Source of the DNA: Veillonella parvula
GTDB taxonomy: Bacteria; Bacillota; Negativicutes; Veillonellales; Veillonellaceae
DNA length: 64,000 bases
Reading direction: 5' to 3'
Assembly (NCBI RefSeq): GCF_032577575.1
Contig: NZ_JAWFVO010000003.1
Span: 122,793 to 186,792, forward strand
Positions 7,464 through 61,107 of this stretch are shown here, in pieces; within the stretch, counting starts at the first letter, position 1; every line of letters begins with the position of its first letter. A program made the position numbers and the translations under genes. The notes beneath the pieces are model-generated. The model made no database searches. It saw only the letters and a program-made list of their open reading frames with translations, and was not told the origin of the DNA.

Positions 7464-7756
7464 TCAGACAATCTCAGATTGAATACTACTACCTAAAGAT
7501 TGAATACTATTACCCAATGATAGTATATATTTCCTCTAAAAAATGACACCACATTATGTATGTGGTGTCATTTTTGGTAATTATCTATTTTCAGCAATTA
7601 CCCTTTGAATCGCATAGGTACGGTGTACTATGGATAGAAATTAAGGTTCAAATATAACAGAATATAGGGAAATTCCAAGGAATTGCCAATTTGTCAAAAC
7701 ACTCTTTCCGCGGTATTGTGTACATAAGCGCTATGCCATGGCAGGAAAGGGGATTT

Positions 7757-8623
7757 ATGTTATACACAAACGAAGAACCTTTAGTACAAAGAACATGTAT
7801 TAAAACTGCAAACTTACAAGGTGACAATTTTCAGTTAGAAACGTTAGAAACACAGGCATTACCATCTCATTCTTTACTATCGAAAGCTAATGAGTCTAGG
7901 GAAAGTATTCCAGAGGAATTGAAATTACAGACCCTCGTCTGTGGTCATCAAGTTTTATCGTCCTTGTCGGACAAGAGTCTCGTATCCATCTGTCAAAAGC
8001 CGAATATGAGGATTCAGACGGTAGGATATCAGCCTTGGTCCGTTGATGAGCTTCGCCATGATGCGGTACAAATCGAGCTTTGTCGCAGGTATCGACCGCT
8101 CATCTTGCACTATACGAATCGCATGGGAAACCGTGAGTTCCGCGAGGACGTAGAGAGCTATCTTTGGGCCATCCTCATAGAATCGATTTATAGCTTTGAT
8201 TTGAACGGGGCCGTACCGTTCCCAGGCTTTGTGAAAGCTGGCATTATGTACGGTTACATGCGGTACTGGAAGCGTGAGCGATTGCGTTATCGCCGTGAAA
8301 TTCACATCCCAGATCGCACCACCGATGATGGAGAAGTCACCTTTGGCATGGATATCTTCGCATCTGGCGAAAATGTGGCGGATATGGTGATGAGTGCCGA
8401 CGAAGAGCATAGGCTGCGAGCACGCCTCGTATGGGCCTTAGGTAGATTGTCTCCTGATCAACGAGACCTACTGCGCCGTGTCTACGGTGAATGCCAAAGC
8501 TTGGTATCGGTTAGTGAAGAATTGAACTGTAGTCGTCAAGCTATCCAACGGCGCCACGAACGAGCCATTCGGAAGCTGCGCAGGTATTTGAGTACGGACT
8601 TTACAGACGTGCGTGTGCATTAG
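7757..8623 (+). CDS. Alternative sigma-70 family factor with N-terminal extension
   Basis: Region 2-like (YRPLI..REDVES..FD...VPFPGFV) and region 4 HTH (LSPDQRDLL..SLVSVSEELNCSRQAI); RBS AAAGGGG. Confidence 0.8.
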   Translation: MLYTNEEPLVQRTCIKTANLQGDNFQLETLETQALPSHSLLSKANESRESIPEELKLQTLVCGHQVLSSLSDKSLVSICQKPNMRIQTVGYQPWSVDELRHDAVQIELCRRYRPLILHYTNRMGNREFREDVESYLWAILIESIYSFDLNGAVPFPGFVKAGIMYGYMRYWKRERLRYRREIHIPDRTTDDGEVTFGMDIFASGENVADMVMSADEEHRLRARLVWALGRLSPDQRDLLRRVYGECQSLVSVSEELNCSRQAIQRRHERAIRKLRRYLSTDFTDVRVH

Positions 8624-11296: not shown

Positions 11297-13138
11297 ATGG
11301 CTGAAATTACGTCCTTAATGAAGGATATTAAGGGGATATTAGATAATAAAAATCAATTTGTTATACCTGATTTTCAACGGAGTTTTGTATGGACAGATAA
11401 AGATGTAGATACACTTTTTTCTGATTTTAAGGAAGATACAGATAATTACACGGATAGGCTTGATACGTTACCTGGGTATTTATTAGGCAATATTGTTTTG
11501 ATTAGCAATGAAAATAATCCGACTAGATTTGATGTGATTGATGGTCAGCAAAGGCTTACAACATTAACGCTCATTTTCTGTGCATTAAATAATTTATTTA
11601 TGGATATTGCGGAAGAGACGCGTCGAAATTTAGGTGCCAATGCAGATATGTGGATGGGGCATACATTTAGCTTTAAAGAGTACTTTAGAATACTAGATAA
11701 TAATTTACAGTTTGTAGATTATAAGATTCTTCATACTCAGGATTTAGATTTTAAAGAGACTTATAAAAGTATCATCAAACAAGGTGCTCTAGTGAGTGAT
11801 GAGGATAATACAAGTGCTAATAACTTAGAGGCTGTTTATGAATCTATTCTTCAGCATTTAAGAAGCATTTATGATGATGAGCCTCAGAAATTATTGTATT
11901 TCTTGCAGTATTTAACTACTAAAGTTAAGTTAATTGAAACTACAGCACCATCGATTGAACGTGCATTCCAGTTGTTTGAGATTTTAAATAATCGTGGTCA
12001 GTCTTTAGAGCCATTAGATCTTTTAAAAAATTACTTACTGAAAAATCTTACCTCTGCACCTGGCATTACACAGAATCAGATTAAGGACTTCTCTGACAGT
12101 TGGAGTCAGTTCTTGAAAAATCTGAAAGATACAGGCAAATCAAAAGCGATTGAAACATCTACTTTCATTAAACATTTTATTATTGGTACAAAAGCAATTA
12201 ATGTAAAGAAGAAGGATTTGTTTGAATATTTTAAAGATAATGAACTTGGAGCGAACGATATTTTGCAACTTTCATCAGATATCAATTCCATCAGTAAGGT
12301 GTATGCTAGTATCAATAGAGACCCACTATCTAATGATTTTTTATCCAATGATGATGGAATGTACACATTATTTACATTGTTTAATACAGTTCAAATTCAT
12401 CCGTTGTTAATGCCGTTCTATAATGCTACGCGTGTAGATAAGGTGAGACTTGTTGATGCGGCTGTGAGATATGTAGCAGCAGTGATATTTTCTTATACGC
12501 AAACGAATGCAATTGAAGCAGAATTGCCTGAAATCATTGAAAAAATATTACATGAATCTGATCCAGTGCGCAGACTAGAGGTTGCAGTAACCGAATTAGA
12601 GTCACGAACAAAACCATATGTTGACTTGATTCGTGCTTTGTTGCCTGTGAAAGATTTTGGCTCTAAAGACAAGAAAAAAGCACCAAAAGCATTCCAAATT
12701 CTTAAATTTATCGAGCTATACTTGAACCAAAGAGACAGTATAAAAACAAATAAAAAGATTGAGTTAGAACATATCATGCCACAAGCTGCAGATAACGAAA
12801 ATTATTCCTTTAATGATGAAGACACTCGAAAGGAATATCTGAATCATCTAGGTAATTTGACACTTTTAGATAAGAGTTTAAATGCCTCTGTTAAGAATGG
12901 TGACTTTGTTGAAAAATTAGATCATTATAAAGCCTGTGAATTTGTTATCACAAGAGCTTTGGCAGAGGACATAGAGAGCCCCGTTCAAAACCAACAACCT
13001 TTGGTTAACTTTCAAAATACATATTTTGCAGTGGATAACTCTGAACAAATAACATACTGGGATAAACCCCAAATCGATGAACGAGGTCAAAAACTCGTAG
13101 AAGTCTTGGAAAAATTACTATTAAAACAAGTTCCATAA
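11297..13138 (+). CDS. GmrSD-like restriction protein (DUF262 + DUF1524 HNH)
   Basis: IPDFQRSFVW, IDGQQRLTTL, FEILNNRG, LEHIMPQ, LGNLTLL..N. Confidence 0.9.
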   Translation: MAEITSLMKDIKGILDNKNQFVIPDFQRSFVWTDKDVDTLFSDFKEDTDNYTDRLDTLPGYLLGNIVLISNENNPTRFDVIDGQQRLTTLTLIFCALNNLFMDIAEETRRNLGANADMWMGHTFSFKEYFRILDNNLQFVDYKILHTQDLDFKETYKSIIKQGALVSDEDNTSANNLEAVYESILQHLRSIYDDEPQKLLYFLQYLTTKVKLIETTAPSIERAFQLFEILNNRGQSLEPLDLLKNYLLKNLTSAPGITQNQIKDFSDSWSQFLKNLKDTGKSKAIETSTFIKHFIIGTKAINVKKKDLFEYFKDNELGANDILQLSSDINSISKVYASINRDPLSNDFLSNDDGMYTLFTLFNTVQIHPLLMPFYNATRVDKVRLVDAAVRYVAAVIFSYTQTNAIEAELPEIIEKILHESDPVRRLEVAVTELESRTKPYVDLIRALLPVKDFGSKDKKKAPKAFQILKFIELYLNQRDSIKTNKKIELEHIMPQAADNENYSFNDEDTRKEYLNHLGNLTLLDKSLNASVKNGDFVEKLDHYKACEFVITRALAEDIESPVQNQQPLVNFQNTYFAVDNSEQITYWDKPQIDERGQKLVEVLEKLLLKQVP

Positions 13139-15932: not shown

Positions 15933-15977
15933 TCTTAGTTTTTTTGAATTTGGTTATATTAGATTTCATCCTATACT
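15933..15977 (+). promoter_or_regulatory. Shared non-canonical promoter motif (copy 1 of 6)
   Basis: TCTTAGTTTTTTTGAAT-N22-TATACT; same spacing at 23439, 25134, 25228, 26759, 37954. Confidence 0.75.
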
Positions 15978-16103
15978 AAAGATGTAGCCGATAAGCGGTA
16001 ATAATTTTAATATGCTTAGGGTATCTTAGTTTTGTATTAAATCATTGGTAGCTTGTTGGGGATTGTAGAAAATATGTATAGTGTTAGGTATAGGAGGTAG
16101 TAT

Positions 16104-16133
16104 ATGAACGTTAATAGGAATGGATTATTCTAA
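16104..16133 (+). CDS. Micro-ORF MNVNRNGLF (9 aa)
   Basis: TAGGAGGT RBS. Confidence 0.45.
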   Translation: MNVNRNGLF

Positions 16134-16170
16134 TAATAGTATATTTAGTTGTAATGATAGGAGGGATGTT

Positions 16171-16239
16171 ATGTCGCCTTTAGCAGTGGATTCTGCAGTA
16201 GCAGTGTTAGTAGCGGTGCTTGATGCACTTGAAGAGTAA
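16171..16239 (+). CDS. Hydrophobic micropeptide MSPLAVDSAVAVLVAVLDALEE (22 aa)
   Basis: AGGAGG RBS; hydrophobic core with acidic tail. Confidence 0.6.
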   Translation: MSPLAVDSAVAVLVAVLDALEE

Positions 16240-16287
16240 TTTTATTTATGTATGTTGATCGGTTAAAGTTTGTAAGGTGGTGATATT

Positions 16288-16320
16288 TTGAGTAAGTATA
16301 GAATTGGATTAGAAAAGTAA
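16288..16320 (+). CDS. Micro-ORF MSKYRIGLEK (10 aa, TTG start)
   Basis: AAGGTGGTGA RBS; resembles MTCRIGYLKL at 25313. Confidence 0.35.
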   Translation: MSKYRIGLEK

Positions 16321-16540
16321 TTATTTTGTTAAATTGTATAGACAGTTAATCATATGTCCGGCTTCATACTATCTCGAACAGAGCGTAGTAAGTGACCTCG
16401 GGTTTTTGGATTCGTTAAGTTTTAGTACATAGTATTATTGTATAATTGGTGTAGATTTTGATTTGGATACAAGAAAGTTAAAGGACCTAGTGCATAGAGA
16501 TATGTGACTAGGTCCTTTTAATCATATAATTTTATAAATA

Positions 16541-18910
16541 TTAGATACTAGGGGCATGAATGAGTGCTGTTTTATAAATTGTTTCTAGTTGCTTTTTTAA
16601 CGGACTATCATCTGTAATTCGGACTGCACAGCCTAGTTTTAATAAATGTCGTAAGATATCTATTTCCTGGAAGGGAAGATAGCTAACTTCAATGGTAAAC
16701 TCTTCATCGTTGATATCTTTAGCTTGAATTGTATAGTTGCTAAAATAGTTAAAGCAACGATCAACTGCATTATTTGCATCGTGCAAGGTAAATGTTACGG
16801 TTCGCTTTGATTCATCTCTATAGTTAGCATATATAGTTTCTATATTTTCTAGTCGTGGTGCAGCCGTTTTTATGATATTAGATTCATTGCGTAGTGGATA
16901 GTCTAAAAAGGTATCCGTTGCATGGTCATAGGCAATAAGCGTATAGCCATTGCTTCCTACAGAGTATTCTATCCGACAAGGAGATAGCTCCTTATCTTGA
17001 ATCATGATACGTTCGTTATTTTGGATAGCTTGTAAGCACTGGGTGATTACTTGCATTGTTAACGGAGTATCGTTTGTCATGGTTGGAACACGTGTCCATG
17101 ATCCTTTTGGAAAGGTAGTGTCTACAGTTTTTAATTCAGTAGATAATATTTGACATAGCTCTGGTGAAAGCAGCCAGTTAGCTCGAGTATCAGAAATGAG
17201 GTCCTTTAAGAACATTCTTTCAGCATCAGAGATAATAACAAGAGGTAAATCTGGAAGAATAGACTCAACCTCTTCGCCATTTTCATTCGGCTCTACTAAT
17301 GCATCGGCTAGGAATTGCTCATAATCATCATTCCGCAATGTTTTTTTGTATGGGGCTGGCGTGAGCAGCCTACGATGATTAATTAATCCTTCTATATCTT
17401 GTTTTGTATGGACAACACCATTAATTAAGTCTAATTGCAATTGGTATTGTGTCGTAAAGGTAATAGCATTGATATCGTTTAAAACGGATGATACATAGGT
17501 ACCATCTAAGTCTTTGTCTTTTTTAGTTCTGTTATTATCAGATTCTTTTCTTTGGAGTGGATGAAGAAATCGATTAATTTTCTTTCGCTTTTTATATCCT
17601 TCTGGTTCTACAAAATCTATATTTAAAGAGGCGTATAAATTATTGTAGAATTTATCCTTAATACTGGATTTGTTTGTGTATGTAATATATACATAAGGTA
17701 AATAGCTACGTAATTGCGGTAATAATTGTAATGCATCTGGTACTTCTAGTTGCAATTCTATATATTCATCTGTTCTTGAGAGCATTGTTAGTGACTCTTT
17801 GAAATGACGAATAAATTTATCGTAGACCAACTCATAATCTTTTAAGGTCAAGAAGTGAATGATACAAGTATCAAATGTTTTATCTCTTGTTTGTATTTTT
17901 GGTACAGTATTAGTACTGTTATATTTTGTAACCTCAAGAGACTTGATGCGATCAATACGATTCCATTGGATACGTCCATTATTAATACTACATAGCATAT
18001 TTTTATTTTCCCCATAATAGGTTTGTAACGCTAATGGACTAACGATTTCCCTAGGTTTCCCAGATTCATAAAAGGATAGACGCACCTTTTTTTGTCGATG
18101 TAAGGCATCGGCTAAAGGGTAGAAAATATCTCCATCAATTACATTATTTGGATTATTATCCTTGAAAGAAAAATATGTATTATTAAAGTCATAGTACATA
18201 GACTTTTGTTGGTCTTTTAAAGAAAAGTCATTAATTAAATACATAATTTTCTTGAGTAAGATATGACCTGCTGCTGAAGTAATAGAAACATTAGTATAAA
18301 AGAATACTGCCATTGCTAGCTCTTGCAACTGCTGTTTTGATAGTTCCTCTATAATAGTTGGTTTTATTGAATATGTATAGCCTTTTGTGAGCTCTGTTTT
18401 GGTGATAGCACCTAAAATTTCTAAAGTCTTTACTTGGCGTTGAATATATTGTTGGTCAATAATGCAAGGGGGCTCTTGTTTTTTATTTCGTTGCTCATAT
18501 AGGTTTTTTACTAAATCAATATAGTGATCCAAGTATGGTTCTTGGTTTAAATTAGTATATAAATCTGTAATAGTTACATCATCGTTTGCTCCAATATATG
18601 ATAAGATGCAGAGCTGTACATAAATTTGTTCTGGAACGGCAGCATATAATTCATATAAATTGTTAAGATAATTATAGCCATCTATAAAATCATCTTTTGC
18701 CAAATGATGAATGGATGTTTTCCCAATTCTTTGCGTGTAAATGTGACGTATGATATCAAAATAATCAAGGCGACGAATCACATCGTCGTGCTGACTTTCT
18801 TTGATACCACGAACTGTTGCTTTACCTCTATTATGGTTCCCGAAGGTTAAGCTGCGGATAAATTGGCGCATACTAGCTAAATCATTTAGATAATTAGTTG
18901 TTGTTGCCAT
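16541..18910 (-). CDS. Large double-WYL transcriptional regulator (PafBC-fusion-like)
   Basis: Two WYL-like segments (ALHRQKKVRLSF..VSP..RIDRIKSLEV; AIQNNERI..SPCRIEY..YTLIAY) and WCX-like ends (LLKLGCAVRI...LK); RBS AAGGGAG before ATG 18910. Confidence 0.75.
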   Translation of the reverse strand: MATTTNYLNDLASMRQFIRSLTFGNHNRGKATVRGIKESQHDDVIRRLDYFDIIRHIYTQRIGKTSIHHLAKDDFIDGYNYLNNLYELYAAVPEQIYVQLCILSYIGANDDVTITDLYTNLNQEPYLDHYIDLVKNLYEQRNKKQEPPCIIDQQYIQRQVKTLEILGAITKTELTKGYTYSIKPTIIEELSKQQLQELAMAVFFYTNVSITSAAGHILLKKIMYLINDFSLKDQQKSMYYDFNNTYFSFKDNNPNNVIDGDIFYPLADALHRQKKVRLSFYESGKPREIVSPLALQTYYGENKNMLCSINNGRIQWNRIDRIKSLEVTKYNSTNTVPKIQTRDKTFDTCIIHFLTLKDYELVYDKFIRHFKESLTMLSRTDEYIELQLEVPDALQLLPQLRSYLPYVYITYTNKSSIKDKFYNNLYASLNIDFVEPEGYKKRKKINRFLHPLQRKESDNNRTKKDKDLDGTYVSSVLNDINAITFTTQYQLQLDLINGVVHTKQDIEGLINHRRLLTPAPYKKTLRNDDYEQFLADALVEPNENGEEVESILPDLPLVIISDAERMFLKDLISDTRANWLLSPELCQILSTELKTVDTTFPKGSWTRVPTMTNDTPLTMQVITQCLQAIQNNERIMIQDKELSPCRIEYSVGSNGYTLIAYDHATDTFLDYPLRNESNIIKTAAPRLENIETIYANYRDESKRTVTFTLHDANNAVDRCFNYFSNYTIQAKDINDEEFTIEVSYLPFQEIDILRHLLKLGCAVRITDDSPLKKQLETIYKTALIHAPSI

Positions 18911-19078
18911 TATTGACTCCCTTTTAAATATGTACATTCTCGACTGTACAAAATAATTCTTAATTATGAATATAACATGATACAATATAAAATGTAAGGA
19001 TAAAATTCGAGGTTAGGTTCTGATAATGCACGGATGACCAAGTGTAGTTAATCAATTAATGTAGGTTTGGTGAAAGCT

Positions 19079-21223
19079 ATGGCAATTCATAATATATTTT
19101 TATCTTTTTTGAGTAAGGTGTCTAATACGAGTATAAAGACGATTGTAAATACAGATATGGAAGATGCTATTCGTAGTAGCATTGCCACGAATGAGTCGTC
19201 TTTGAAATATATTTTATACCATACATGGAAGGATGAAAAAACAAGAGATATATCCTTTGATAAGATATATTTATTATGTACTGATGGTGTAATGGCACAT
19301 CAAAGTAATAGCCCATCATCTTATGATATCTTTGTTAATCAAATGTGTAAGTTTTATAACGTGATGGGCCACAATGAGCAGGCCTTTTTAGATGCTCTTG
19401 ATCATGTCCCATGTGGTACAGACTTAGATGATATTAGTCGTATTAAGTCTAGCATCATTGAGATGTCAAAGAAGATTCTTGACTTTAAAGATACTTTCAC
19501 CAATGATAAAGATGAGGTCCGCCTCTATATGGATATCACTGGTGGCCCACGCAATGCAGCTATGATTCTCCTTGTTATTAGTAGACTGCTCGCCTATCAT
19601 GGTATCATTGTTGATGATGTATATTACTCTGGTTATAAGGAGATTGAGAACGGCCCAGGAGAAATTACAGTTCATAAAGTGCTAGATATTTATGAGCTAT
19701 TTGATATTATTGCAGGATTTGAAGAGTTTAAACTATTTGGTAGTGCCAAAAAATTAAATACTTACTTTAAGTCACCTGAAAATATTGGAACAGGTAATAT
19801 TGAATCGACTGCTACAGCTACAAAAAAATTGCTAAAAGCTATGGACAGCTTTTCAGAAGCTATTAATATTTCAAGCCGTGGAGCATTTGAAAAATCTATA
19901 GCTCGTCTTGATGATAGCTTAGCCTTAGTACGTAGCATGGCAAATAATACAGATAACAATAAGACCTTTGACCAAGAATTGATTGAATTATTGCACAAAC
20001 CTATTGAGCAGTCGTATACTACACTTTTACAACATCATCGCAATCATGCTTCTGATGAACTAGCCTATATTGACTGGTGTTTAGATCATGATTATTTACA
20101 ACAAGCACTTACCTTATTTTGTGAATATGTACCGGAATACGCAGTAGATAAAGGTATTATAGAGTGTAATCCACTTGTGTTTAATGCATATTATGAAGAT
20201 ACCCTACAGAATAAAGAAAAGAGATTGCTACAAGCTGCTATAAAAGCATGGAATAGAGCGGGGAATCATATCCAGTTTAGTACATTTTATAATGTAGTCA
20301 TGCCCGATCATGATAAAAAAACTTCTGAAAAAGATGTACGGTCTATGCCTATGCGCTTATTCAATTCTATTAATAACGCTCGTATGCAAAACTTGGCGGC
20401 TATGATAAATACAAAAAAAGATAAAGTAGCTCCTAATATCGATAAAGTAATTACTTATTATATTAAATTCGTAAGAAACGAAAAAAAGAAAATACAAATT
20501 GTTGAAAGAGACCTCCAAAAGCAGAAAGAACGTATTCATCTGATGGTGGATGAAGAAACTACTAAACTTAGAGAAAAATGTGAGGTTCTTTTAAATCAAT
20601 ATGAGTTTACACTTTATTTACAAGACGATAGATATGCTGAAAATTATACATTATTAGAATATATCTCGTTTTTGCAAGATATTCTTGAAAGTGCAGAGAA
20701 TGTAGAAACCTTTAATAATATCTTAGAGTCATTACGTAAAAATATAATATCTGAAGTCTTAAGTAAAGAGGAATTTAAAGAGTATATTATTTGTGATGCA
20801 GATAATTCTTCATTTAGGTTGAAAAAAACAAGTATGTTAGCGCGTAATGTGGTGTGTAATGCTATATTAAATCATTTAATTGCAGAAAAGAAATATAAGG
20901 CTTATAAAAGTTTGATTATGCATCAGTTACCAGATACTAAAGATAGTGCGGTTACTACGGCTGAGCTTTTGTTATCACAACAAAAGCCTAATCATAGAGG
21001 GGTTCCTTTATTTGAGGTCTCTGGTGTGTACATTCCACATGTTCTATTAGATGATATAGCTAAGACTATGAAGTTTATTGAACAATACTTTGAGATAAAA
21101 AAAGCACGTAATGATAGTAATCATGCAAATAAAGAAGCATTATGTAAATATACTACTTCACAAGAATTGCTAGATGAGATGCGTAAATGTGTGGCAATGG
21201 CAAGAGAATTGAGTAGAAAATAG
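19079..21223 (+). CDS. CARF-HEPN (TM1812/Csx1-Csm6-like) cOA-activated nuclease
   Basis: CARF motif YMDITGGPRN; HEPN RNDSNH. Confidence 0.85.
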   Translation: MAIHNIFLSFLSKVSNTSIKTIVNTDMEDAIRSSIATNESSLKYILYHTWKDEKTRDISFDKIYLLCTDGVMAHQSNSPSSYDIFVNQMCKFYNVMGHNEQAFLDALDHVPCGTDLDDISRIKSSIIEMSKKILDFKDTFTNDKDEVRLYMDITGGPRNAAMILLVISRLLAYHGIIVDDVYYSGYKEIENGPGEITVHKVLDIYELFDIIAGFEEFKLFGSAKKLNTYFKSPENIGTGNIESTATATKKLLKAMDSFSEAINISSRGAFEKSIARLDDSLALVRSMANNTDNNKTFDQELIELLHKPIEQSYTTLLQHHRNHASDELAYIDWCLDHDYLQQALTLFCEYVPEYAVDKGIIECNPLVFNAYYEDTLQNKEKRLLQAAIKAWNRAGNHIQFSTFYNVVMPDHDKKTSEKDVRSMPMRLFNSINNARMQNLAAMINTKKDKVAPNIDKVITYYIKFVRNEKKKIQIVERDLQKQKERIHLMVDEETTKLREKCEVLLNQYEFTLYLQDDRYAENYTLLEYISFLQDILESAENVETFNNILESLRKNIISEVLSKEEFKEYIICDADNSSFRLKKTSMLARNVVCNAILNHLIAEKKYKAYKSLIMHQLPDTKDSAVTTAELLLSQQKPNHRGVPLFEVSGVYIPHVLLDDIAKTMKFIEQYFEIKKARNDSNHANKEALCKYTTSQELLDEMRKCVAMARELSRK

Positions 21224-21283: not shown

Positions 21284-23302
21284 TTATTGTTGATTATACG
21301 TACAGATATACTCACGAACCTCACGAATATCATTAAGACATTGTTTTAACTCTCTTTTTATGTCTTCACTTTCAATAAACTGGCCCCGCTTTTCTTCACG
21401 TGCATGTGCCGTATCATTTCGACTACCTTTTAATGTTCTATACAGGTTTAATATGCGAGCCACTTGTGTTATTTTTTCTGGATTGCTTTTTAATACTGAA
21501 TTAAGTGTGAGTCCATCTATACCATAAAGTTGATGGGGAAATAAATCTATTGGATATTGATATGATACAAAATTAGCAAATAGAAAACGATATATATCAT
21601 CATTGTTTGAGTTCGTGAAGATTGAAATAAATGCATCTCTTACCTTAAAGAGTTTATTAGTGTCGTTAAGTGTAATTTCATATTGATCATTAACTGTTAC
21701 AACATCGCTAGGTAAATCTTTAATTTCTTTTAATTGATGTACAAGTGCAGCAGTAAAATATCTTCTAATATCTTTACTGAACTCATTTATACCTACAATA
21801 GATTTGGTATTTATACCTATATTACTGATAAGTCGCAGTAGCTTACTAGGCACATTAACATTATTATTGGTAAACGTTTTGTATTTCAAATAATTATGTG
21901 GCTCTTTTTCTGCTTCTTTTAAGATTATTTGATTAATATCGTTTATTAGTTGCTCTTCAAATTTAGGGTATTGTGTATCCTCTCTAGTAATGTTAGTGCT
22001 AATGTTATTTTTCTTGTTTTTTAATGTTCGTTGGATAATTTGCTTAGACTCTTTTGAAAAATCACCACTAAAGTATTTCAGTAATACGCTTTTTATTTTA
22101 TTATTAATCTTAGTCGCTCTATTGTTTACGATTTCCATTGTTTTGGCGGTATACTCATTAATCGTATTAAAGTTCTCCATAGAGGCACTCAATTCATTGT
22201 CTGAGTCTGTAGGGAAGATTGTGTCGTCTAAAATAATCATTTTAGATTCTAAAATAGCACGAGGTACAAATTCAGCGAATAGTGCTAAGGCTTGCTGTAG
22301 ATAACCATTAGCTAGGCACCAATCAATGTATGCTAAATCGTCTTCTTTATTAGCTAGCACTGTTTTATAGTTATTTTGAATTTTGCCACTCATTAATTTG
22401 AGTGCCTCAATTTCAAAGTTTTTATGGTTTTCCCTATTATTTGCAGGTATTTCTTGTTTAGAGGATTCGATATCTGTTAAAAGTTTATGAATGTCCTCCA
22501 TGGATCTTTGGAATATACCGCGACTAGATAGACGAACGGCTTCTGAAAAATCTCCCATGCTAGAGATTAGTTCTTTGATTTGGACATCGGGGTTATCTAA
22601 GGTGTTTACATAGTTTTTTAATGTATCAACACTACCAAATTGGTTGAACTCAGCAAATCCTGTAATCATATCGTAAATATTATAGATGGAGTTCCCTTCA
22701 TATACTCGCACTATGCTATTGTTATTTGCATTTACATTGGCATATAAAATAGATCCAATTTCAATACCTTGAAAAGCTACTAGTCTAATGATGGCAATCA
22801 TCAGCATAATCGCAGTTCGTGGGCCACCAGATAAGTCTACATGTAAGATAACCCTGTCGTCAGATGACTTGCTTTTGTAATATTCCATTATAGCTTGAGA
22901 CATATCTATGATGCTGTCCTTTAGATTGTCTATATAGTCGATGTCACCACAATCTATATAATTAATTGTTTCTGGGTCCCACGTAATAGGTATACTGGTT
23001 TTATTGATATAATCACACATTTGCTCTTCAAATACGTTTAGGCTTGATATGGTAGATTCTTTAAACGTATTCTCCATTTCTGGTGATTTAAAAAAGAATA
23101 GCTTATCTAATTTGAAAGCAGAGTTCTCTTTTCTTTTATTATGTAAAAGATACTTTAAAGCGGATTCATTGGTTTGACGGATGACATCAAAGGGAGCTAT
23201 CTCAGTAAGATTAACAACTGTTTTTTCTAGCTTTTGCGGATTATATGGATTATCTTTCGTATGTAAGGTGCTTAAAAATGTTAGGTAAATATGATGTTCC
23301 AT
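21284..23302 (-). CDS. Second CARF-HEPN nuclease, paralog of 19079-21223
   Basis: HVDLSGGPRT; TNESALKY; YIDWCL..YLQQAL; HEPN RNDTAH. Confidence 0.85.
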   Translation of the reverse strand: MEHHIYLTFLSTLHTKDNPYNPQKLEKTVVNLTEIAPFDVIRQTNESALKYLLHNKRKENSAFKLDKLFFFKSPEMENTFKESTISSLNVFEEQMCDYINKTSIPITWDPETINYIDCGDIDYIDNLKDSIIDMSQAIMEYYKSKSSDDRVILHVDLSGGPRTAIMLMIAIIRLVAFQGIEIGSILYANVNANNNSIVRVYEGNSIYNIYDMITGFAEFNQFGSVDTLKNYVNTLDNPDVQIKELISSMGDFSEAVRLSSRGIFQRSMEDIHKLLTDIESSKQEIPANNRENHKNFEIEALKLMSGKIQNNYKTVLANKEDDLAYIDWCLANGYLQQALALFAEFVPRAILESKMIILDDTIFPTDSDNELSASMENFNTINEYTAKTMEIVNNRATKINNKIKSVLLKYFSGDFSKESKQIIQRTLKNKKNNISTNITREDTQYPKFEEQLINDINQIILKEAEKEPHNYLKYKTFTNNNVNVPSKLLRLISNIGINTKSIVGINEFSKDIRRYFTAALVHQLKEIKDLPSDVVTVNDQYEITLNDTNKLFKVRDAFISIFTNSNNDDIYRFLFANFVSYQYPIDLFPHQLYGIDGLTLNSVLKSNPEKITQVARILNLYRTLKGSRNDTAHAREEKRGQFIESEDIKRELKQCLNDIREVREYICTYNQQ

Positions 23303-23617
23303 AATATGGCTCCTAGAGAATCGAGAATTAAAAATGAAGCTTTTATGAATACTATACCAAATTTTATATAAATTACATAGAGCCTAGCCCATAGTAAAAT
23401 AATAGATATATAAGCGAATCTTAAAATTTATGTTTACGTCTTAGTTTTCTTGAATAGGGATATATGGGTTCACATTTTATAATAACCTTGTAACCTAAAT
23501 AAAATACCTTTTGATTCATAAAACCAAAGATTCGTTCTACTTTTATGAACTCATAGGTAGACCGGATTAGTTCATACTTTAGATGGTTAATTTAAGTTCA
23601 TATAATAAGGAGGTAAC

Positions 23618-23650
23618 ATGTGTAGAAAGATTAGTCGTGTAGATATGTAA
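23618..23650 (+). CDS. Micro-ORF MCRKISRVDM (10 aa)
   Basis: Perfect TAAGGAGGT RBS. Confidence 0.45.
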   Translation: MCRKISRVDM

Positions 23651-23697
23651 TTGTACTTTTGTTGTTTCAGGCTTTTAGTATAGGAGGAGGTGTTTGT

Positions 23698-23748
23698 ATG
23701 GAACTATTTGTTGAGTTTGGTTTAGTTCATGTTTGTGTTGAGGAGTAA
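23698..23748 (+). CDS. Micropeptide MELFVEFGLVHVCVEE (16 aa)
   Basis: AGGAGGAGGTG RBS; acidic tail. Confidence 0.55.
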   Translation: MELFVEFGLVHVCVEE

Positions 23749-23780
23749 TTTTGATCATTATAATTGAATCTGATGTTAAT

Positions 23781-23820
23781 TAGACCTATTCATATGATGT
23801 CTCATATGAGTAGGTCTTTT
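23781..23820 (+). terminator. Intrinsic terminator closing a micropeptide cassette
   Basis: AGACCTATTCATATGA/TCATATGAGTAGGTCT plus U tract; homolog at ~25901-25936. Confidence 0.75.
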
Positions 23821-24122: not shown

Positions 24123-24953
24123 GTTGCAACAGTACTTACCGTTTACGGTATTGAAACATAAAGGTCAAGTAATTTTCTGTATTGGTTCTGCAGAGTTGCA
24201 ACAGTACTTACCGTTTACGGTATTGAAACAAAGCTCATCAGCATTAATAAGTCGGATAGTATATTTATGTTGCAACAGTACTTACCGTTTACGGTATTGA
24301 AACTTATGATAACTTTGGCCATCTAGTTCTGATTCATTCCCAGTTGCAACAGTACTTACCGTTTACGGTATTGAAACTTCTTGAATTGCTGGGGTTAAAA
24401 TGCCTTTAATGAGTTGGTTGCAACAGTACTTACCGTTTACGGTATTGAAACTGATAGTCTCCTTTGCAAAATAGTACCGGATTTTTTAGTTGCAACAGTA
24501 CTTACCGTTTACGGTATTGAAACACGAAAAATTAAATTGTTCAATAGTATTTTTCTACGTGTTGCAACAGTACTTACCGTTTACGGTATTGAAACGCTTT
24601 GATTTCGGTAGGTATGCTTCTTTATATTTATGGTTGCAACAGTACTTACCGTTTACGGTATTGAAACATGAACAGTCTCTTCGGATGCATGTATTTTCTT
24701 TTCGGTTGCAACAGTACCTACCGTTTACGGTATTGAAACTTATATACGAATTTCATAATTATTCTCCTCTACCGGTTGCAACAGTACCTACCGTTTACGG
24801 TATTGAAACATTCCATTTAAAGATGCCTCTGTATCGTCAATACACACAGTTGTAACAGTACTTACCGTTTACGGTATTGAAACGTTTTAAGACGATGTGT
24901 TTCTTTTTCGCCCATATCATGCAAGTTGCAACAGTACTTACCGTTTACGGTAT
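24123..24953 (+). CRISPR. Array 4, family A (GTAC variant), 12 repeats/11 spacers; last repeat interrupted
   Basis: GTTGCAACAGTACTTACCGTTTACGGTATTGAAAC. Confidence 0.97.
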
Positions 24954-25050
24954 GCGCCGAAGGGTGCAAGACAGCAGAGGAGCAAAGCGACGATGAGGTC
25001 CGCACATCTCAAGTACCTGAACGAAGTGAAGGTAAAACAAGGGTGATAAG
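24954..25050 (+). repeat. Repeat-embedded ~100-nt element, array 4 copy
   Basis: Near-identical to 26275-26378 and 26471-26574; followed by a degenerate repeat remainder. Confidence 0.9.
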
Positions 25051-25312
25051 ACAATAGTACTTACTGTTTATGATTGTGTATTTTCATATTTAATGCAAAA
25101 GAGTGAATCTAAAGATCCACTCTTTTTTTTGTGTCTTAGTTATTTTGAATATGGACTTGTCGCTTTTCATTTTATAATGATTTTGTAGCCCAAAGGGAAA
25201 TACTTGAATTATAGAGATGGTCGTTCGCCTTAGTTTTTATGAATTCAATTGTATCTTTGATAAGGTTATACTATGGATAGTTAATTTAGTCATATGAGTT
25301 GGGAGGTAATGA

Positions 25313-25345
25313 ATGACTTGTAGAATTGGATATTTGAAATTGTAA
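25313..25345 (+). CDS. Micro-ORF MTCRIGYLKL (10 aa)
   Basis: GGGAGGT RBS. Confidence 0.45.
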   Translation: MTCRIGYLKL

Positions 25346-25392
25346 ATGTCAAAGGATTTGTTTTGTTTATATGTATTTTAGGAGGAATTAAT

Positions 25393-25500
25393 ATGCTACC
25401 ATTATTTGCAGCAGCAGCGGCCGCAGCCGCATGGGAAGGTTTTGCAGCAGGTGTATTATTAGGTGTGTCCGTATATCAAGCCGTTAAGTCTGATGACTAG
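25393..25500 (+). CDS. Hydrophobic peptide MLPLFAAAAAAAAWEGFAAGVLLGVSVYQAVKSDD (35 aa)
   Basis: AGGAGG RBS; poly-Ala with mixed codons, GxxxG, acidic tail. Confidence 0.7.
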   Translation: MLPLFAAAAAAAAWEGFAAGVLLGVSVYQAVKSDD

Positions 25501-25536
25501 TTGTTGGTTGATATATTAAGAAAGGTAGGTGATAGT

Positions 25537-25596
25537 ATGTATCCATATATAGGTTTTGCCGTAGGATTAATAGTATGTAAATTATTTGAGGACTAA
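25537..25596 (+). CDS. Micropeptide MYPYIGFAVGLIVCKLFED (19 aa)
   Basis: AGGTAGGTGA RBS. Confidence 0.6.
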   Translation: MYPYIGFAVGLIVCKLFED

Positions 25597-25613
25597 TACA
25601 AGGAGAAAATAGT

Positions 25614-25667
25614 ATGAAACAATTGTTACAATATAAATTAGTAGAAAACAGGAGATGTAAGTTTTAA
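25614..25667 (+). CDS. Micropeptide MKQLLQYKLVENRRCKF (17 aa)
   Basis: AAGGAG RBS. Confidence 0.45.
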   Translation: MKQLLQYKLVENRRCKF

Positions 25668-25707
25668 GGATTGTATTAAAAGGTTTTAATTGTAATGAGG
25701 TGAAAAT

Positions 25708-25788
25708 ATGGATGAACTATTGGATCTAGTAATAGAACTAGTTGTTGATGAAGCAGTAGATTTTGTACTAGACGAATTATTTGATTGA
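25708..25788 (+). CDS. Acidic amphipathic peptide MDELLDLVIELVVDEAVDFVLDELFD (26 aa)
   Basis: GAGGTGA RBS; only acidic and hydrophobic residues. Confidence 0.6.
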   Translation: MDELLDLVIELVVDEAVDFVLDELFD

Positions 25789-25805
25789 GTATAGGAGAGG
25801 TGTAC

Positions 25806-25865
25806 ATGTCAACTCTAATAGGATTATTATTGTTGTATATATTCGCTTGGTATCTTGAGGATTAA
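25806..25865 (+). CDS. Micropeptide MSTLIGLLLLYIFAWYLED (19 aa)
   Basis: AGGAGAGGTG RBS; TM-like with acidic tail. Confidence 0.6.
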   Translation: MSTLIGLLLLYIFAWYLED

Positions 25866-26245
25866 TAGTAGAAATAATGATGGAATATAATTGTATATAG
25901 GCCTATTCATATGATATCGTATGGATAGGTCTTTTTATATGTAGTAGATAGACTAAATCCTTTTTTAGGTATTCAAATTAAGTTAAAAGTTGTTAAACTT
26001 AGATACTATCTACATTTAATTAAAAATAAGCCATAAGTCAGAAAGAAAACGATAAAGAATATTGACGTAAAATCGAGAAACCCTTATAATTACTGTAACC
26101 TTAGAAAAATCATTTACCACCAGTATTTACTTATGCTTATCGGTATTTTTGATCCAATGGGAGCTCAATCTGACCGTTTACGGTGTGAGGTTTGCCAAAA
26201 CTTAATTTTAAGCCCCATGAATACTGGCTTTCTGAGGTATGCTGT

Positions 26246-26672
26246 GTTGCAACAGTGCTTACCGTTTACGGTATGCGCCGAAGGGTGCGAGACAACAGAG
26301 GAGCAAAGCAACGATGAGGTCCGCACATCTCAAGTGCCTGAACGAAGTGAAGGTAAAACGAAGGTGATAAGGGATTCAGCTTACCGTTTACGGTATTGAA
26401 ACGGTGTCATTGGGTCTTCAGAAACAGTAATTACCTACCCAGTTGCAACAGCTTTTACCGTTTGCGGTATGCGCAGAAGGGTGCGAGACAGCAGAGAATC
26501 AAAGCGACGATGAGGTCCGCACATCTCAAGTACCTGAACGAAGTAAAGGTAAAACGAAGGTGATAAAGGATTCAGCTTACCGTTTACGGTATTGAAACTC
26601 TTTATCAATTTCAGTAGCTTTAGGTAAATTTACAGTTGCAACAGCTCTTACCGTTTACGGTATGCGTCGAAG
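26246..26672 (+). CRISPR. Array 5: full leader, two 157-nt expanded repeats, 2 spacers and a partial third repeat
   Basis: Repeats 26246-26402 and 26442-26598; spacers 26403-26441 and 26599-26634. Confidence 0.88.
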
Positions 26673-26844
26673 AATGGGAATATCTAACTTAAAAATTACA
26701 TAATAATAAAGAACTGTGTTTTTGTGTATATCACACAAAGATACAGTTCTTTTTTTGTTCCTAGTTTTTCTGATTAGTTTACTTTCAGTATGATTCGTAT
26801 AATGAACTCAACAAGTTTAATTGGTCTTATATAGGAGGTAGTAT

Positions 26845-26907
26845 ATGGCAATGTTGTTTTTAACTTTATTGGTGTGGTTTATATTACCATCACGGAATGA
26901 TTATTAA
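26845..26907 (+). CDS. Micropeptide MAMLFLTLLVWFILPSRNDY (20 aa)
   Basis: TAGGAGGT RBS; first ORF after the shared promoter at 26759. Confidence 0.55.
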   Translation: MAMLFLTLLVWFILPSRNDY

Positions 26908-26917
26908 GGAGGGTATT

Positions 26918-27316
26918 ATGGAAAATTTACAGCAAGAATTAAAGTCTATGTTGTCCTTATCAGGGCGTATGAATCGTCGCTCTTATTTTATGAATTTGTT
27001 GATGATTATTGGTATTGGCTATCTTGGGGGCCTTTGTATTAGTCTTGCCCCTGTATCAAAGTTTTTCTGGGTATTGGGTTGGTCAATCATAGGGTATTCT
27101 GTTGTTCGAGAGTTAGCTATTGCATCGCGTCGTATTCATGATTTAAATGGGCCAACTTATCTAGCAGGTATTTATATTGTGGCCGCTATAATAGCTATTT
27201 TTGAGCCCACTTTGGCTAAAATAATGGGATTTGTAAAAATTGGTTTAGTGCTGATGCCAGGGAATGAAGATCCTAATAATTATGGTGAAAAACCGGATTC
27301 AATGATTGTTGTTTAG
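26918..27316 (+). CDS. DUF805 (YhaH-like) membrane protein
   Basis: GRMNRRSYF, RRIHDLN, PG...NNYGE motifs. Confidence 0.88.
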   Translation: MENLQQELKSMLSLSGRMNRRSYFMNLLMIIGIGYLGGLCISLAPVSKFFWVLGWSIIGYSVVRELAIASRRIHDLNGPTYLAGIYIVAAIIAIFEPTLAKIMGFVKIGLVLMPGNEDPNNYGEKPDSMIVV

Positions 27317-27332
27317 TAAAGGAGTAAATGGA

Positions 27333-27413
27333 ATGACTGGCTTCATAGGGATATTTTTGTGTGGGATTGTATTGCTTATGATTTTTGATTCTCTGATTAA
27401 TGGTAGAAAGTAA
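27333..27413 (+). CDS. Small TM peptide MTGFIGIFLCGIVLLMIFDSLINGRK (26 aa)
   Basis: AAAGGAG RBS; fills the gap before cas2. Confidence 0.55.
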   Translation: MTGFIGIFLCGIVLLMIFDSLINGRK

Positions 27414-27430
27414 AGATACAGGAGGTTCTG

Positions 27431-27706
27431 ATGCAGTATCTTATTTCTTATGATATTTCCGATACTAAAATTAGAAATAAGGTAGTTAAGTATTTAGAAT
27501 CCTTCTGTTACCGCGTACAGTATAGTGTGTTTTTATGTGTTCATGCTCACGTTAGAGTAGAAACGATTGCCAAAAAGCTCGAGGTGCTAACACAAGGGGA
27601 TGAAACACGGCGTCTCCTCATCGTCTCTATTTCTGACACAGCTAAGACACCTATATGGTGTAATAAAATGATTCCATTAACAGAGGATAAGATGTTGATC
27701 ATTTAA
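27431..27706 (+). CDS. cas2: Cas2
   Basis: YLISYDISD, RVQYSVF. Confidence 0.93.
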   Translation: MQYLISYDISDTKIRNKVVKYLESFCYRVQYSVFLCVHAHVRVETIAKKLEVLTQGDETRRLLIVSISDTAKTPIWCNKMIPLTEDKMLII

Positions 27707-27720
27707 TTTTGTAGGAGGTT

Positions 27721-28719
27721 GTGATGTTAGAAACTTTATATGTAATGACACCTGGTATATCGATACGACAAGATGGAGGATTGTTAGTACTTGAAAAAGA
27801 TCATTCTGTTATTAAAGAAATTCCTATAGCGACTGTATCAAATCTTGTATTAGGCCGAACGATTCAAATTTCTACGCAGGTTATGTTTTCTTTAGTGAAG
27901 CAAGGTTCTCTCATTCAGTTTGTAGATTATAAGTATCAGCTTGTAGGGACCTTAGGGGATGAGCATACGACTTTACAACGTTTGTTGTGGCAAGTAGCAT
28001 GCTTTCAAAATCAAGAATTTGCCTTAGATGGGGCCAAATATATTGTGCGACGTAAGATTAAAGGTCAGATAGCCTTGTTGAATCAGTACAAAAAGAGTAA
28101 ATGCATTCCAAATTTTGTGGCCGTACATAGAACGATGCAAGCGTTGCTGAAACGTGTAGAAAGAACAAAAAAAGTAGACACATTACGTGGTATAGAGGGA
28201 TTAGCATCTAGGACTTATTTTTCTGTATTAAGACATGTATTATCTGAACCATGGGAATTTTCTGGCCGTAGACGTCATCCTAGCCCTGATCCTGTTAACG
28301 CTATCTTGAGTTATGGCTATTCGTTTTTAGAACGGGAAGTACGTGCCTGTTTGTTGACTGCTGGTTTAGATGTACGCATAGGTGTTCTACATAGCACGAA
28401 TAATCGAAAGGATAGTTTAGTGTACGATGTAATGGATATATTTAGACAAGATATAATCGATCGCTTTGTATTAAAACTATTGAATCGTCATATGATACTC
28501 CCTGAAGATTTTGATCTATCAGAACGAGGTTGTTTTTTATCTAAAGAGACCAATAAGGAATGGGTGGAGCTTTATGAGGACTATATGAAAGCGGAGCTTT
28601 CTCGCCTTGATAATCTAGCACCAAGAAAATGGATTCAACAAGAAATACAAGCTTTTATTTCATATCTCAAATCGTTAGGTGAAACAGTAGATATTGAAAA
28701 ATCTGAGAATATATCTTGA
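27721..28719 (+). CDS. cas1: Cas1
   Basis: LRGIEG, GRRRHPSPDPVNAILSYGY, GVLH, SLVYDVMD. Confidence 0.95.
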   Translation: MMLETLYVMTPGISIRQDGGLLVLEKDHSVIKEIPIATVSNLVLGRTIQISTQVMFSLVKQGSLIQFVDYKYQLVGTLGDEHTTLQRLLWQVACFQNQEFALDGAKYIVRRKIKGQIALLNQYKKSKCIPNFVAVHRTMQALLKRVERTKKVDTLRGIEGLASRTYFSVLRHVLSEPWEFSGRRRHPSPDPVNAILSYGYSFLEREVRACLLTAGLDVRIGVLHSTNNRKDSLVYDVMDIFRQDIIDRFVLKLLNRHMILPEDFDLSERGCFLSKETNKEWVELYEDYMKAELSRLDNLAPRKWIQQEIQAFISYLKSLGETVDIEKSENIS

Positions 28720-37845: not shown

Positions 37846-38008
37846 GACATATAGTCCATACAACTAAATTCTATGGGAGCATAGATATAGTTACTCTCAA
37901 TGAAAGAAGCCTTAAAGGCATCTGTTATAGATGTCTTTGAGGCTTCTTTTTGTTCCTAGTTTTTTTGATTATCTCCATTTTTGGATTACTCGTATAATGA
38001 ACACACAA

Positions 38009-38176
38009 GTTAAGCCTGAGGGGTAAAGCATCGAGTAATCATTTTACCTCCTATGAGCATGATATTTCTCCTTTTATAAAATAAAATTTCTCCTTTCTAC
38101 ACACATGAACCCTTTAGGGTTTTGAGGCCGTCTTTAACGGTTTAAAATTTAGCGATGCTCGCCTCACAGGTTTAAC
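38009..38176 (+). ncRNA. Putative structured RNA with three anti-SD motifs
   Basis: 5'/3' pairing GTTAAGCCTG/CAGGTTTAAC and AGCATCG/CGATGCT; CCTCCT and two CTCCTTT in the loop; begins just after the -10 at 37993. Confidence 0.55.
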
Positions 38177-38338
38177 AGTAATTTTAATGTTTGTGTTAAT
38201 TGATAGTATGGTTTCTTTCTTGATGGGTGTTGTTATTTTTTGATGATTGTTTGATTGGTCTTATAGTTGTAAGTGTTGTTTGTTTTATTGTATAGTTTGA
38301 AATTTTGTTATATGTAGTTTTTACACATGGAGGTTCTT

Positions 38339-39001
38339 ATGGAACAGTTAATTAGACGTTTTACTTTATCTAGCAATGAATATTTATCTCGTGATTGTGT
38401 TGGTTATTATCGTGACTTGTATTTACGCTTTCGTGAGCCAGGAAATCCTGATTTTCTTAATACCTTAAAAAATACATTGAACAACTATTGTCCTAGTGTC
38501 CTAAAATCTGCCCGTCAGGAAGTGTATGATAGAGTAAAAAGGGATATTCCCGATATCATGAAGGCTGAAAAGCTTGAGGAGGCGGTTGTTGCCGTTGTAC
38601 CTAGATCTAAAGCCCTTATGTCACCTAACCAGTTAGGCTTCCGCGATGCGGTGCAAGAGTGTGTCAGAATATTACAGGCCAACGGATACTCAGGTATCAG
38701 AGATGGCATCGGTTGTATTATGCGACATACAAATACGAAGACAACACATATTCATAAAAATTTGCCAGGCTTTGATAATTGCGGTAGCGAGCCCTATGTG
38801 GGCATTACAAATGACACTTGTCATATTGACGCCGATGCAGTTCGAGGCAAAACGGTTATTTTAATTGATGATATTTATACAAAAACAGTGAACGTTGATG
38901 AGGATTGTATTCAGGCATTATATGATGCGGGCGCAGCTCGTGTTGTATTCTACGCCGTTGCATACACCTACCGTCGTTCTTCTTATAGAAAAGGGGCATA
39001 A
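38339..39001 (+). CDS. Phosphoribosyltransferase (ComF/ShosT-like)
   Basis: VVPRSK, PRPP loop VILIDDIYTKT, GAARV. Confidence 0.85.
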   Translation: MEQLIRRFTLSSNEYLSRDCVGYYRDLYLRFREPGNPDFLNTLKNTLNNYCPSVLKSARQEVYDRVKRDIPDIMKAEKLEEAVVAVVPRSKALMSPNQLGFRDAVQECVRILQANGYSGIRDGIGCIMRHTNTKTTHIHKNLPGFDNCGSEPYVGITNDTCHIDADAVRGKTVILIDDIYTKTVNVDEDCIQALYDAGAARVVFYAVAYTYRRSSYRKGA

Positions 39002-39002
39002 T

Positions 39003-39950
39003 ATGAATATTTCACCGATAGCTTTAAAAATTTGGGCCGTCCATAATACGACGAGCCGCATTACAACTAGAAAGAGCTTTCACGATACTTGGAAAACGGA
39101 GGATGAATTCCTCGCCATGATGAGCGAAATTCCCAACATCGATGATGTAGTGCATGAACTATCCGTAGCGGTAGATGACATGGACTGGATGGACGGTGCA
39201 GTATGCTGCTTTGATGCGGAGTTTCCAGTTATTAATGAAAGCGCCCCTAAAGGGGATTGTCCGTATCTCTTGTTCTACAAGGGGGATTTGTCCTTACTAG
39301 GTGATTTAAATCGTAATGTGGCGGTCATCGGTTATACGACGCCTAATGAAAATCTCATTGCTCGTGAAAGCAAGATTGTTGAGTATTTAGTCCATCATGG
39401 CCAACATATCGTAAGCGGCCTTGCTAAAGGCTGTGATGCCATCGGACATACGGTATGTATGGAACGTGGAGGAAAGACGATTGCCATCTTGCCATCACCA
39501 TTAAATGCTATTTCACCGGCAGACCATCGGGACATGGCCCATCAAATTATCGAAAAAGGTGGTCTTGTTATTTCTGAATACTACAATGGGCCGCGCAGTC
39601 GTCATGAAGCGATTAATCGTTATGTAGAGCGAGATCGGTTGCAAGCGTTATTTGCCAAGGCTGTAGTGCTCATCGCTAGCTATGAAGGCCGAGATGGAGA
39701 TAGTGGCTCCCGTCATGCTATGGGCAAAGCACACTCTTATGGACATCTAGCCTGTGTCATGTATGATGAAACGACAGATGGCGAAGTACTTGAGATGAAA
39801 TTGAACCGTAGCCTACTTTCACAGCAAAAAGCAAAACAATTGGTGACAAATCCAAGTGGAGTCGGTACGGCAGGATATAGCTCGGTAATGGTGGATGACC
39901 TCGTAAGCCTTGTGAATCCTGCATTAGAGGCACAGCAAAAACTATTTTAA
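39003..39950 (+). CDS. DprA/Smf-like protein (ShosA-like)
   Basis: PYLLFYKG, IVSGLAKGCD, GGLVISEY, ERDRLQA, SGS. Confidence 0.88.
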   Translation: MNISPIALKIWAVHNTTSRITTRKSFHDTWKTEDEFLAMMSEIPNIDDVVHELSVAVDDMDWMDGAVCCFDAEFPVINESAPKGDCPYLLFYKGDLSLLGDLNRNVAVIGYTTPNENLIARESKIVEYLVHHGQHIVSGLAKGCDAIGHTVCMERGGKTIAILPSPLNAISPADHRDMAHQIIEKGGLVISEYYNGPRSRHEAINRYVERDRLQALFAKAVVLIASYEGRDGDSGSRHAMGKAHSYGHLACVMYDETTDGEVLEMKLNRSLLSQQKAKQLVTNPSGVGTAGYSSVMVDDLVSLVNPALEAQQKLF

Positions 39951-61079: not shown

Positions 61080-61107
61080 AACGAGTGTGTTAGTATTAGG
61101 GGTTATT

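Follow-up and report, generated by a model that had tools for sequence, protein, structure and literature searches.

Type I toxins and the membrane peptides of the SOS response (Fst/Ldr, TisB, DinQ) are short and hydrophobic with charged tails, and some of them are induced by damage. The staphylococcal PSM-alpha operon expresses several short amphipathic peptides from one promoter. Genes of this size are mostly passed over by gene callers and by surveys of cas-accessory genes. The regulator PafBC occurs in fused or split form and its promoters lack a functional -35 element, while the site of DriD, which activates the division inhibitor gene didA, has its 3' end at position -36 (both as described in the available part of PMC9186387). 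The accessible text of Sberro et al. (10.1101/494179) reports 27 small families linked to CRISPR, and describes family #395508 as a 28-aa transmembrane protein of Veillonella that in 65 of 72 contigs lies no more than 10 genes away from CRISPR genes. The literature, mostly in its open-access share, yielded no description of a polycistronic cassette like the one reported here or of its promoter motif; an earlier note on this DNA states that no described system is known to have this layout.

The stretch of Veillonella parvula DNA analysed here (the window, 64,000 nucleotides) contains a large defence island with three types of CRISPR repeat, a type III-D module (csx10, csx19) and Cas9. The cluster to which the neighbouring CARF protein belongs includes a member named from V. 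parvula. The earlier note had placed six consecutive ORFs of 10-35 aa, each with a strong RBS, between tandem promoter motifs and a terminator, and the whole cassette between two CRISPR arrays; all of these elements were located (Table 1). By sequence inspection, the six plus-strand ORFs of this cassette (cassette C) lie within 25281-25940, and their anti-SD duplex energies range from -8.5 to -14.4 kcal/mol. Six such ORFs were obtained in 0 of 2000 dinucleotide shuffles of the same interval, the maximum being five, reached once. In the 2.2-Mb genome, cassette C is the sole run of more than three such SD-ORFs. Predicted RBS accessibility is mixed (0.14-0.64 unpaired). Two terminator-like sites were found against 0.3 expected.

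Table 1. Positions of cassette C and of related or neighbouring features in the window
Feature	Position	Strand	Remarks
Cassette A	15934..16518	+	Motif promoter, ORFs 16104-16133 (9 aa) and 16171-16239 (22 aa), terminator
Tandem WYL-WCX protein (PafBC-like fusion)	16541..18985	-	Candidate activator; probable start 18910
CARF-HEPN (Csx1/Csm6-like) protein	19067..21223	+	
CARF-HEPN (Csx1/Csm6-like) protein	21284..23302	-	
Cassette B, paralogous	23440..23820	+	Motif promoter, ORFs 23618-23650 (10 aa) and 23698-23748 (16 aa), terminator
CRISPR array upstream of cassette C	24123..24953	+	Leader with its own canonical promoter at 23941
Promoter P1	25135..25178	+	16-bp motif (CYTAGTWWTNNTGAWW type) + 22 nt + TATAAT; -35 poor (2/6)
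Promoter P2	25229..25272	+	16-bp motif (CYTAGTWWTNNTGAWW type) + 22 nt + TATACT; -35 poor (3/6)
ORF1	25313..25345	+	10 aa, basic, not hydrophobic; SD, start and length kept
ORF2	25393..25500	+	35 aa, hydrophobic helix rich in small residues, GxxxG; signature gene of the family
ORF3	25537..25596	+	19 aa, hydrophobic, acidic tail
ORF4	25614..25667	+	17 aa, basic, not hydrophobic
ORF5	25708..25788	+	26 aa, acidic amphipathic helix, net charge -10
ORF6	25806..25865	+	19 aa, hydrophobic, acidic tail
Intrinsic terminator	25899..25932/25936	+	15 pairs; sequence common to cassettes C and B
Leader and short array downstream of cassette C	26062..26663	+	Canonical sigma-70 promoter 26062-26090
cas2-cas1 operon	26760..28719	+	Motif promoter, 20-aa ORF (26845-26907), DUF805 membrane protein, 26-aa ORF (27333-27413), cas2, cas1
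ShosTA-like pair	37955..39950	+	Motif promoter, ShosT-like PRTase, ShosA-like DprA

Four of the peptides had been described as hydrophobic with acidic C-termini. The four acidic ends are present, and the hydrophobic character holds for ORF2, ORF3 and ORF6, but not for ORF5, which is amphipathic. ORF4 corresponds by position to a 16-aa acidic peptide of other cassettes. A Pfam scan, limited to peptides of at least 20 aa, gave no family match for 5 window peptides (ORF2 and ORF5 included) or for 14 related peptides, with one sub-threshold hit (E 0.28); ORF3, ORF4 and ORF6 are too short for it, ORF3 being represented by its longer relatives. ORF3 has an Fst-like look, for which Pfam gave no support among these relatives. 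The ESM Atlas returned no named match; its best entry is an unnamed 32-aa cluster (0.91), which may be the query's own. Complex prediction with four copies of ORF2 scored 0.02 and speaks neither for nor against an assembly. Rfam gave no match over cassette C, its two hits being sub-threshold and due to chance, and a scan for consensus promoters listed none on the minus strand across it. Of 22 public sequencing runs listed, one with a match is on record as RNA. Among contigs from four runs of doubtful RNA status, X1 covers 25195-25884 and 25900-26089, and X7 spans the region as DNA would.

The two sister cassettes of the window share features with cassette C. In cassette A, the peptide at 16171-16239 is hydrophobic with an acidic tail, and a TTG-start ORF of 10 aa is also present. 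Cassette B lies upstream of the array-4 leader and has a longer form in genome G051 and locus L175. Two further small hydrophobic ORFs flank the DUF805 gene at the start of the cas2-cas1 operon, in which cas2 is a 91-aa ORF named from its place and size. The ORF just upstream of cas2 has 26 aa in the window, compared to 28 aa in G074 and G297; going by size, context and the description that is accessible, our guess is that this cas2-proximal peptide is family #395508. The 27 CRISPR-linked families reported in the accessible text of Sberro et al. (10.1101/494179) may also include ORF2 or other peptides of the cassettes.

Several other elements of the window deserve mention. An element of about 105-125 nt sits at a fixed place inside CRISPR repeats and is copied along arrays (24954-25060, 26275-26380, 26471-26575). 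Three close copies, none of them outside the island, occur in the genome, and many copies in L047 (G076), G297 and L046; the folding z of the element is -2.7 and Rfam gave no match. At 40614-42869, two ORFs of 294 and 391 aa, the second with a weak TPR match, correspond in G051, G062 and G074 to one ORF of 751-760 aa that has the same start, hence this gene looks split in the genome of the window. A hydrophobic ORF of 33 aa with a strong SD at 50481-50582 is kept in G057 and G089, and with a sub-threshold Hol_Tox match (E 0.14) it is a possible type I toxin. An alternative sigma-70-family factor is encoded at the island edge (7691-8623). The cas1 next to cas9 (61087-61725) measures only 212 aa, matches its Pfam model in part and is possibly broken. 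Further defence genes of the island encode a GmrSD-like nuclease between two arrays (11297-13138), a PDC-S27-like ATPase (6399-7463) and a SoFic-like protein (1113-2162).

Comparison of cassette copies bears on the coding status of the ORFs. Among 15 six-ORF copies, ORF2 and ORF5 are intact in all 15, ORF1 in 14, ORF4 in 13 and ORF3 in 12, and ORF6 is intact in 12 of 14 complete copies. ORF3 is broken in 3/15 copies, the start codon of ORF4 is gone in 2/15, and ORF6 is not intact in 2/14; ORF content differs between cassette copies. Deletions within ORF2 (3 and 12 nt) are in frame. Codon models gave omega values of 1.0 (ORF1), 0.43 (ORF2), 0.33 (ORF3), 0.63 (ORF4, weak), 0.20 (ORF5) and 0.42 (the 16-aa peptide standing in the place of ORF4 in other cassettes), with likelihood-ratio statistics against omega = 1, computed with a simpler model, of 0.05, 30, 21, 4.6, 23 and 10.5, respectively; the underlying alignments are short and their members were chosen by peptide pattern, which biases omega downwards. 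The families so covered are those of ORF1 to ORF5 and of the 16-aa peptide, the pattern having missed the ORF6 family.

A codon comparison paired by synteny is free of this selection bias. Differences at codon position 2, codon position 3 and in intergenic DNA amount to 5/132, 16/132 and 19/141 for the second copy in G051, and to 17/128, 39/128 and 42/133 for L179. Two distance classes are informative; in both, position 2 is 2.3-4 times less variable than position 3, and position 3 varies about as much as intergenic DNA. Close strains show position 1 differences as frequently as position 3 differences and are uninformative. At the protein level, purifying selection acts on ORF2, ORF3 and ORF5. 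The coding status of these three ORF families is well supported, and the cassette ORFs in general are very probably protein-coding; ORF4 and ORF6 are weakly supported as functional peptides. ORF1 keeps its SD, start and length at an omega near 1, and hence is probably a leader ORF rather than an effector. The ORFs and RBSs are conserved, and three ORF families have omega well below 1, as expected from the earlier reading of the run as a peptide operon. Some of the six do not resemble functional peptides, as ORF1 has an omega of about 1 and certain copies contain a broken ORF3, ORF4 or ORF6.

The exact ORF2 protein occurs in 986 contigs. The repeat of the array is carried by 8 of 81 other Veillonella genomes, and the Veillonella regions fetched contain cassettes in G051 (three with ORF2), G062, G074, G057 and G070, the latter two with relics; the regions fetched from G076 and G096 showed no cassette. 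Nine ORF2 homologues are present in G089, mostly as units of promoter, cassette, leader and array. At least two CRISPR repeats accompany 26 of 27 metagenome loci. The remaining locus, L192, lies inside a long ORF that has no repeats and was regarded as spurious. At the protein level, a search gave 145 clusters (E up to 10); among the 120 listed, none has a Pfam domain, and the named members are from Anaerovibrio and Megasphaera. A DNA search of 40 relatives, a set without island carriers, gave chance matches only, and 390 further genomes of the phylum gave no cassette match. None of 166 candidate stretches from viral contigs was related, and phage and plasmid records were likewise without a match.

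A profile built from Veillonella only had six strong matches among 401 genomes of the class, five of them csx19-positive, compared to 41/401 genomes with csx19 overall (the csx19 tally and the profile search used two draws of 401 genomes with identical family tallies, apparently the same set). None of its 14 weak genome matches (E 0.005-0.05) recurred with a broader profile, which matched 9/401 genomes and is partly circular, as sequences of G356 and G419 were included in it. In G200, a member of another family, a cassette directly follows genes of III-D, CARF and ring-nuclease-like type. Two cassettes are present in G450, of the same genus as G200: the first is flanked by an array and cas1-cas2-like genes, the second by a RAMP-like gene and an array (genes read by eye). 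Among 36 further III-D (csx19) loci, taken from 43 csx19 places at up to 40 kb each (five places in genomes already known and two others were left out), two have clear cassettes (G356, G419) and 34 have none; in G297 just the cas2-proximal ORFs are present, and the small ORFs of G341 are unrelated. In G419, a 10-codon ORF follows each tandem promoter. Near cas1 of G341, in the stretch from this gene to an array leader, two similar promoter-like repeats are followed by small glycine-rich hydrophobic ORFs. The sole new genome found with the broader profile, G405, carries a cassette of three ORFs next to genes that, read by eye, are recombinase-like and RadC-like, and the 3 kb around it contain no CRISPR repeat.

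As judged by sequence comparison, cassettes of varying make-up recur in Veillonella, where they frequently stand directly ahead of a CRISPR leader. They also occur in two further families of the Negativicutes, for the most part at III-D loci. Since only 2/36 further III-D loci have one, III-D does not need the cassette, and on these counts the cassette family is a sporadic Negativicutes module that is enriched at III-D loci yet not required by them. Taken together, cassette C is real and conserved, and as a unit it has apparently not been described before.

P1 and P2 share a layout in which a 16-bp motif stands 22 nt before a TATAAT-type -10 element, a spacing found in 34 of 38 motif/-10 pairs. 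Neither P1 nor P2 is of the standard sigma-70 type, and a scan for such promoters listed neither of them. Motif promoters match the -35 consensus at 2-3 of 6 positions, whereas the array leaders have canonical promoters. A motif matrix trained on other genomes finds its six top sites in the genome of the window (29-35 bits) all within the island, the next site scoring 17.5 bits. Two of these six strong sites stand before cassette C, and one each before cassette A, cassette B, the cas2-cas1 operon and the ShosTA-like pair. Upstream of the cassettes of G356 and G419 the 16+22 layout occurs as well, with a diverged sequence. From this common motif with its fixed spacing we infer that cassette C is co-regulated with cas2-cas1, the ShosTA-like pair and the two sister cassettes. 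In G089-like strains (L088 12143-14151, L187, L189), a tandem motif promoter precedes a RecD2-like/PDC-M16A-like helicase gene, which widens the candidate regulon. A different promoter-like motif (GGAAAC/GT, 17-19 nt, GATAT) occurs in seven copies before and inside the cassettes of G200 (L089) and G450 (L104, L105).

The island also encodes a tandem WYL-WCX protein, which likely activates the motif promoters. WYL models match the product of this gene in two stretches. Its homologues show WYL and WCX matches on both halves, each half ending in WCX, and weak HTH matches; they occur fused or split into two adjacent genes, the split form being found in G356, G419 and G450, all of which bear cassettes. 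A single-sequence fold of the regulator reached a pLDDT of 35, and a PDB sequence search gave no match. Among III-D loci, the motif exceeds 10 bits in 4 of 12 WYL-positive loci (blastp) and in 0 of 24 others, a comparison between related and not independent loci; 8 of the 12 do not reach this value. With the query used, the WYL gene was not found in the cassette carriers G200, G405, G057 and G070, and the last two keep the motif.

We tentatively read cassette C as a polycistronic small-peptide operon within an inducible regulon of the III-D island, namely its membrane-peptide output under WYL control, at somewhat less than even probability. The WYL protein would sense ssDNA or RNA arising from infection or damage, and would bind the motif at about -50 to -35, switching on promoters without a good -35 element. 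Two promoters and strong RBSs would then yield a burst of peptides. More weakly inferred is that the hydrophobic ORF2, ORF3 and ORF6 and the amphipathic ORF5 might act at the inner membrane, with the membrane or one of its complexes as the target, and that they might slow growth or phage development during spacer acquisition, as DidA does under DriD. A role of the peptides in membrane growth arrest or against phage is conceivable, though the odds lie slightly against it; its two grounds are peptide physicochemistry and the analogy to DriD-didA. The earlier note had associated the cassette with defence, offering abortive-infection toxins, bacteriocin-like peptides, phage-entry blockers or Cas modulators. 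The association is supported by the CRISPR repeats at the metagenome loci and by the motif common to cas2-cas1 and the ShosTA-like pair; the four functions stay candidates.

Other explanations were weighed against this one. The peptides may be modulators that bind Cas10/Csm, CARF-HEPN, Cas1-Cas2, WYL or phage proteins, with the acidic ORF5 as a nucleic-acid mimic. The strongly negative charge of ORF5 together with its lowest omega, the two small ORFs inside the cas2-cas1 operon, and the cassettes adjoining III-D cas genes in G200, G450 and G419 would fit such a role; however, the conserved members are mostly hydrophobic, nearly all other III-D loci (34/36) do without a cassette, and cassettes persist in G070 and G405, where the csx19 marker was not found. 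We regard this as unlikely. Equally unlikely is that a formerly useful or mildly selected operon is copied along with the leader-array unit and has no present role in defence. The unit of motif, cassette, leader and array is repeated in G089 and duplicated in G051, its ORF content is unstable with some ORFs broken, and relics are seen in G057 and G070, all as a passenger would leave behind. Selection on ORF2, ORF3 and ORF5, the motif kept at exact spacing, and the occurrence at III-D loci of three families in differing positions and orientations argue to the contrary.

A little less probable still is that the RNA is the agent, its SD-AUG sites sequestering ribosomes in a CreT-like manner, or stabilising or insulating transcripts before the leader, with the peptide sequence being incidental. 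The unusually strong SDs, the 10-codon ORFs of G419, and ORF1, with its signals and length kept at neutral omega, point in this direction. On the other hand, ORF2, ORF3 and ORF5 show omega below 1 and in-frame indels, and leaders have their own promoters and lie behind the terminator. The best of 83 spacers scores 0.67 against the cassettes, while shuffled spacers score 0.63-0.70; since no spacer exceeds this chance level, no CreA-like guide was found. Three further spacers have at most 8 nt in common with the cassettes.

It is improbable that the peptides are released as PSM-like or leaderless surfactants or bacteriocins that kill neighbouring cells or lyse the infected one: one operon with several short peptides, the amphipathic members in G450 and G356 (hydrophobic moment 0.5-0.7) and the GxxxG of ORF2 are compatible with it, but the charge is neutral to anionic, the Pfam scan described above supplied no relative, and 41 of 58 long window ORFs, scanned for bacteriocin processing and export genes, include no peptidase or ABC exporter. 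Just as improbable is a role as small membrane proteins of the superinfection-exclusion kind, which block a receptor or the injection of DNA. Single short hydrophobic helices with charged tails and the co-regulation with a DUF805 membrane protein are set against the lack of relatives in the viral, phage and plasmid records searched and an induction that, following DNA sensing, would be too late for the first phage.

Returning to the reading of cassette C as membrane-peptide output of a WYL-controlled regulon, we consider a wider putative module, which is more speculative and on balance doubtful. In it, a PafBC-like tandem WYL sensor would switch on spacer acquisition, the ShosTA-like pair and modular, duplicating cassettes of 10-40-aa peptides, the latter forming a joint membrane effector that might arrest infected cells while III-D immunity is acquired; the composition of the cassette would be shuffled like a repertoire. 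If the reading of cassette C holds, peptide effectors form a layer of the III-D islands in Negativicutes that has been overlooked, and the sensing of infection is tied to cas1-cas2 expression through a WYL activator whose binding motif is defined. With the motif and its six targets in hand, this tie is open to direct tests.

Compared to known systems, the staphylococcal PSM-alpha operon differs in that the peptides here are anionic or hydrophobic and stand in a defence island, with no exporter found among the window ORFs scanned. CreTA and CRISPR-repressed toxins, as far as described in the available part of PMC8501985, are alike in being small elements of CRISPR-cas loci with strong translation signals. 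In contrast to them, the cassettes have no matching guide among the spacers compared, are selected at protein level and occur in a III-D context. Type I toxins and SOS peptides (SidA being named in the accessible part of PMC9186387) are likewise short hydrophobic peptides with charged tails. Unlike these, the present peptides are polycistronic and without a Pfam match, the promoter scan listed none in antisense, and their own promoters are of activator type rather than LexA type. Family #395508 is a single gene, and its description, in the part available, includes neither cassette nor regulator. The DriD-didA system and the PafBC regulon, according to the accessible part of PMC9186387, share with the candidate regulon a WYL-WCX activator, a site just upstream of -35 and a weak -35 element. 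They differ from it in that the candidate regulon does not reach beyond a CRISPR island, its motif is asymmetric and stands 22 nt from the -10 element, and its output is a polycistron of 10-35-aa ORFs present in several copies.
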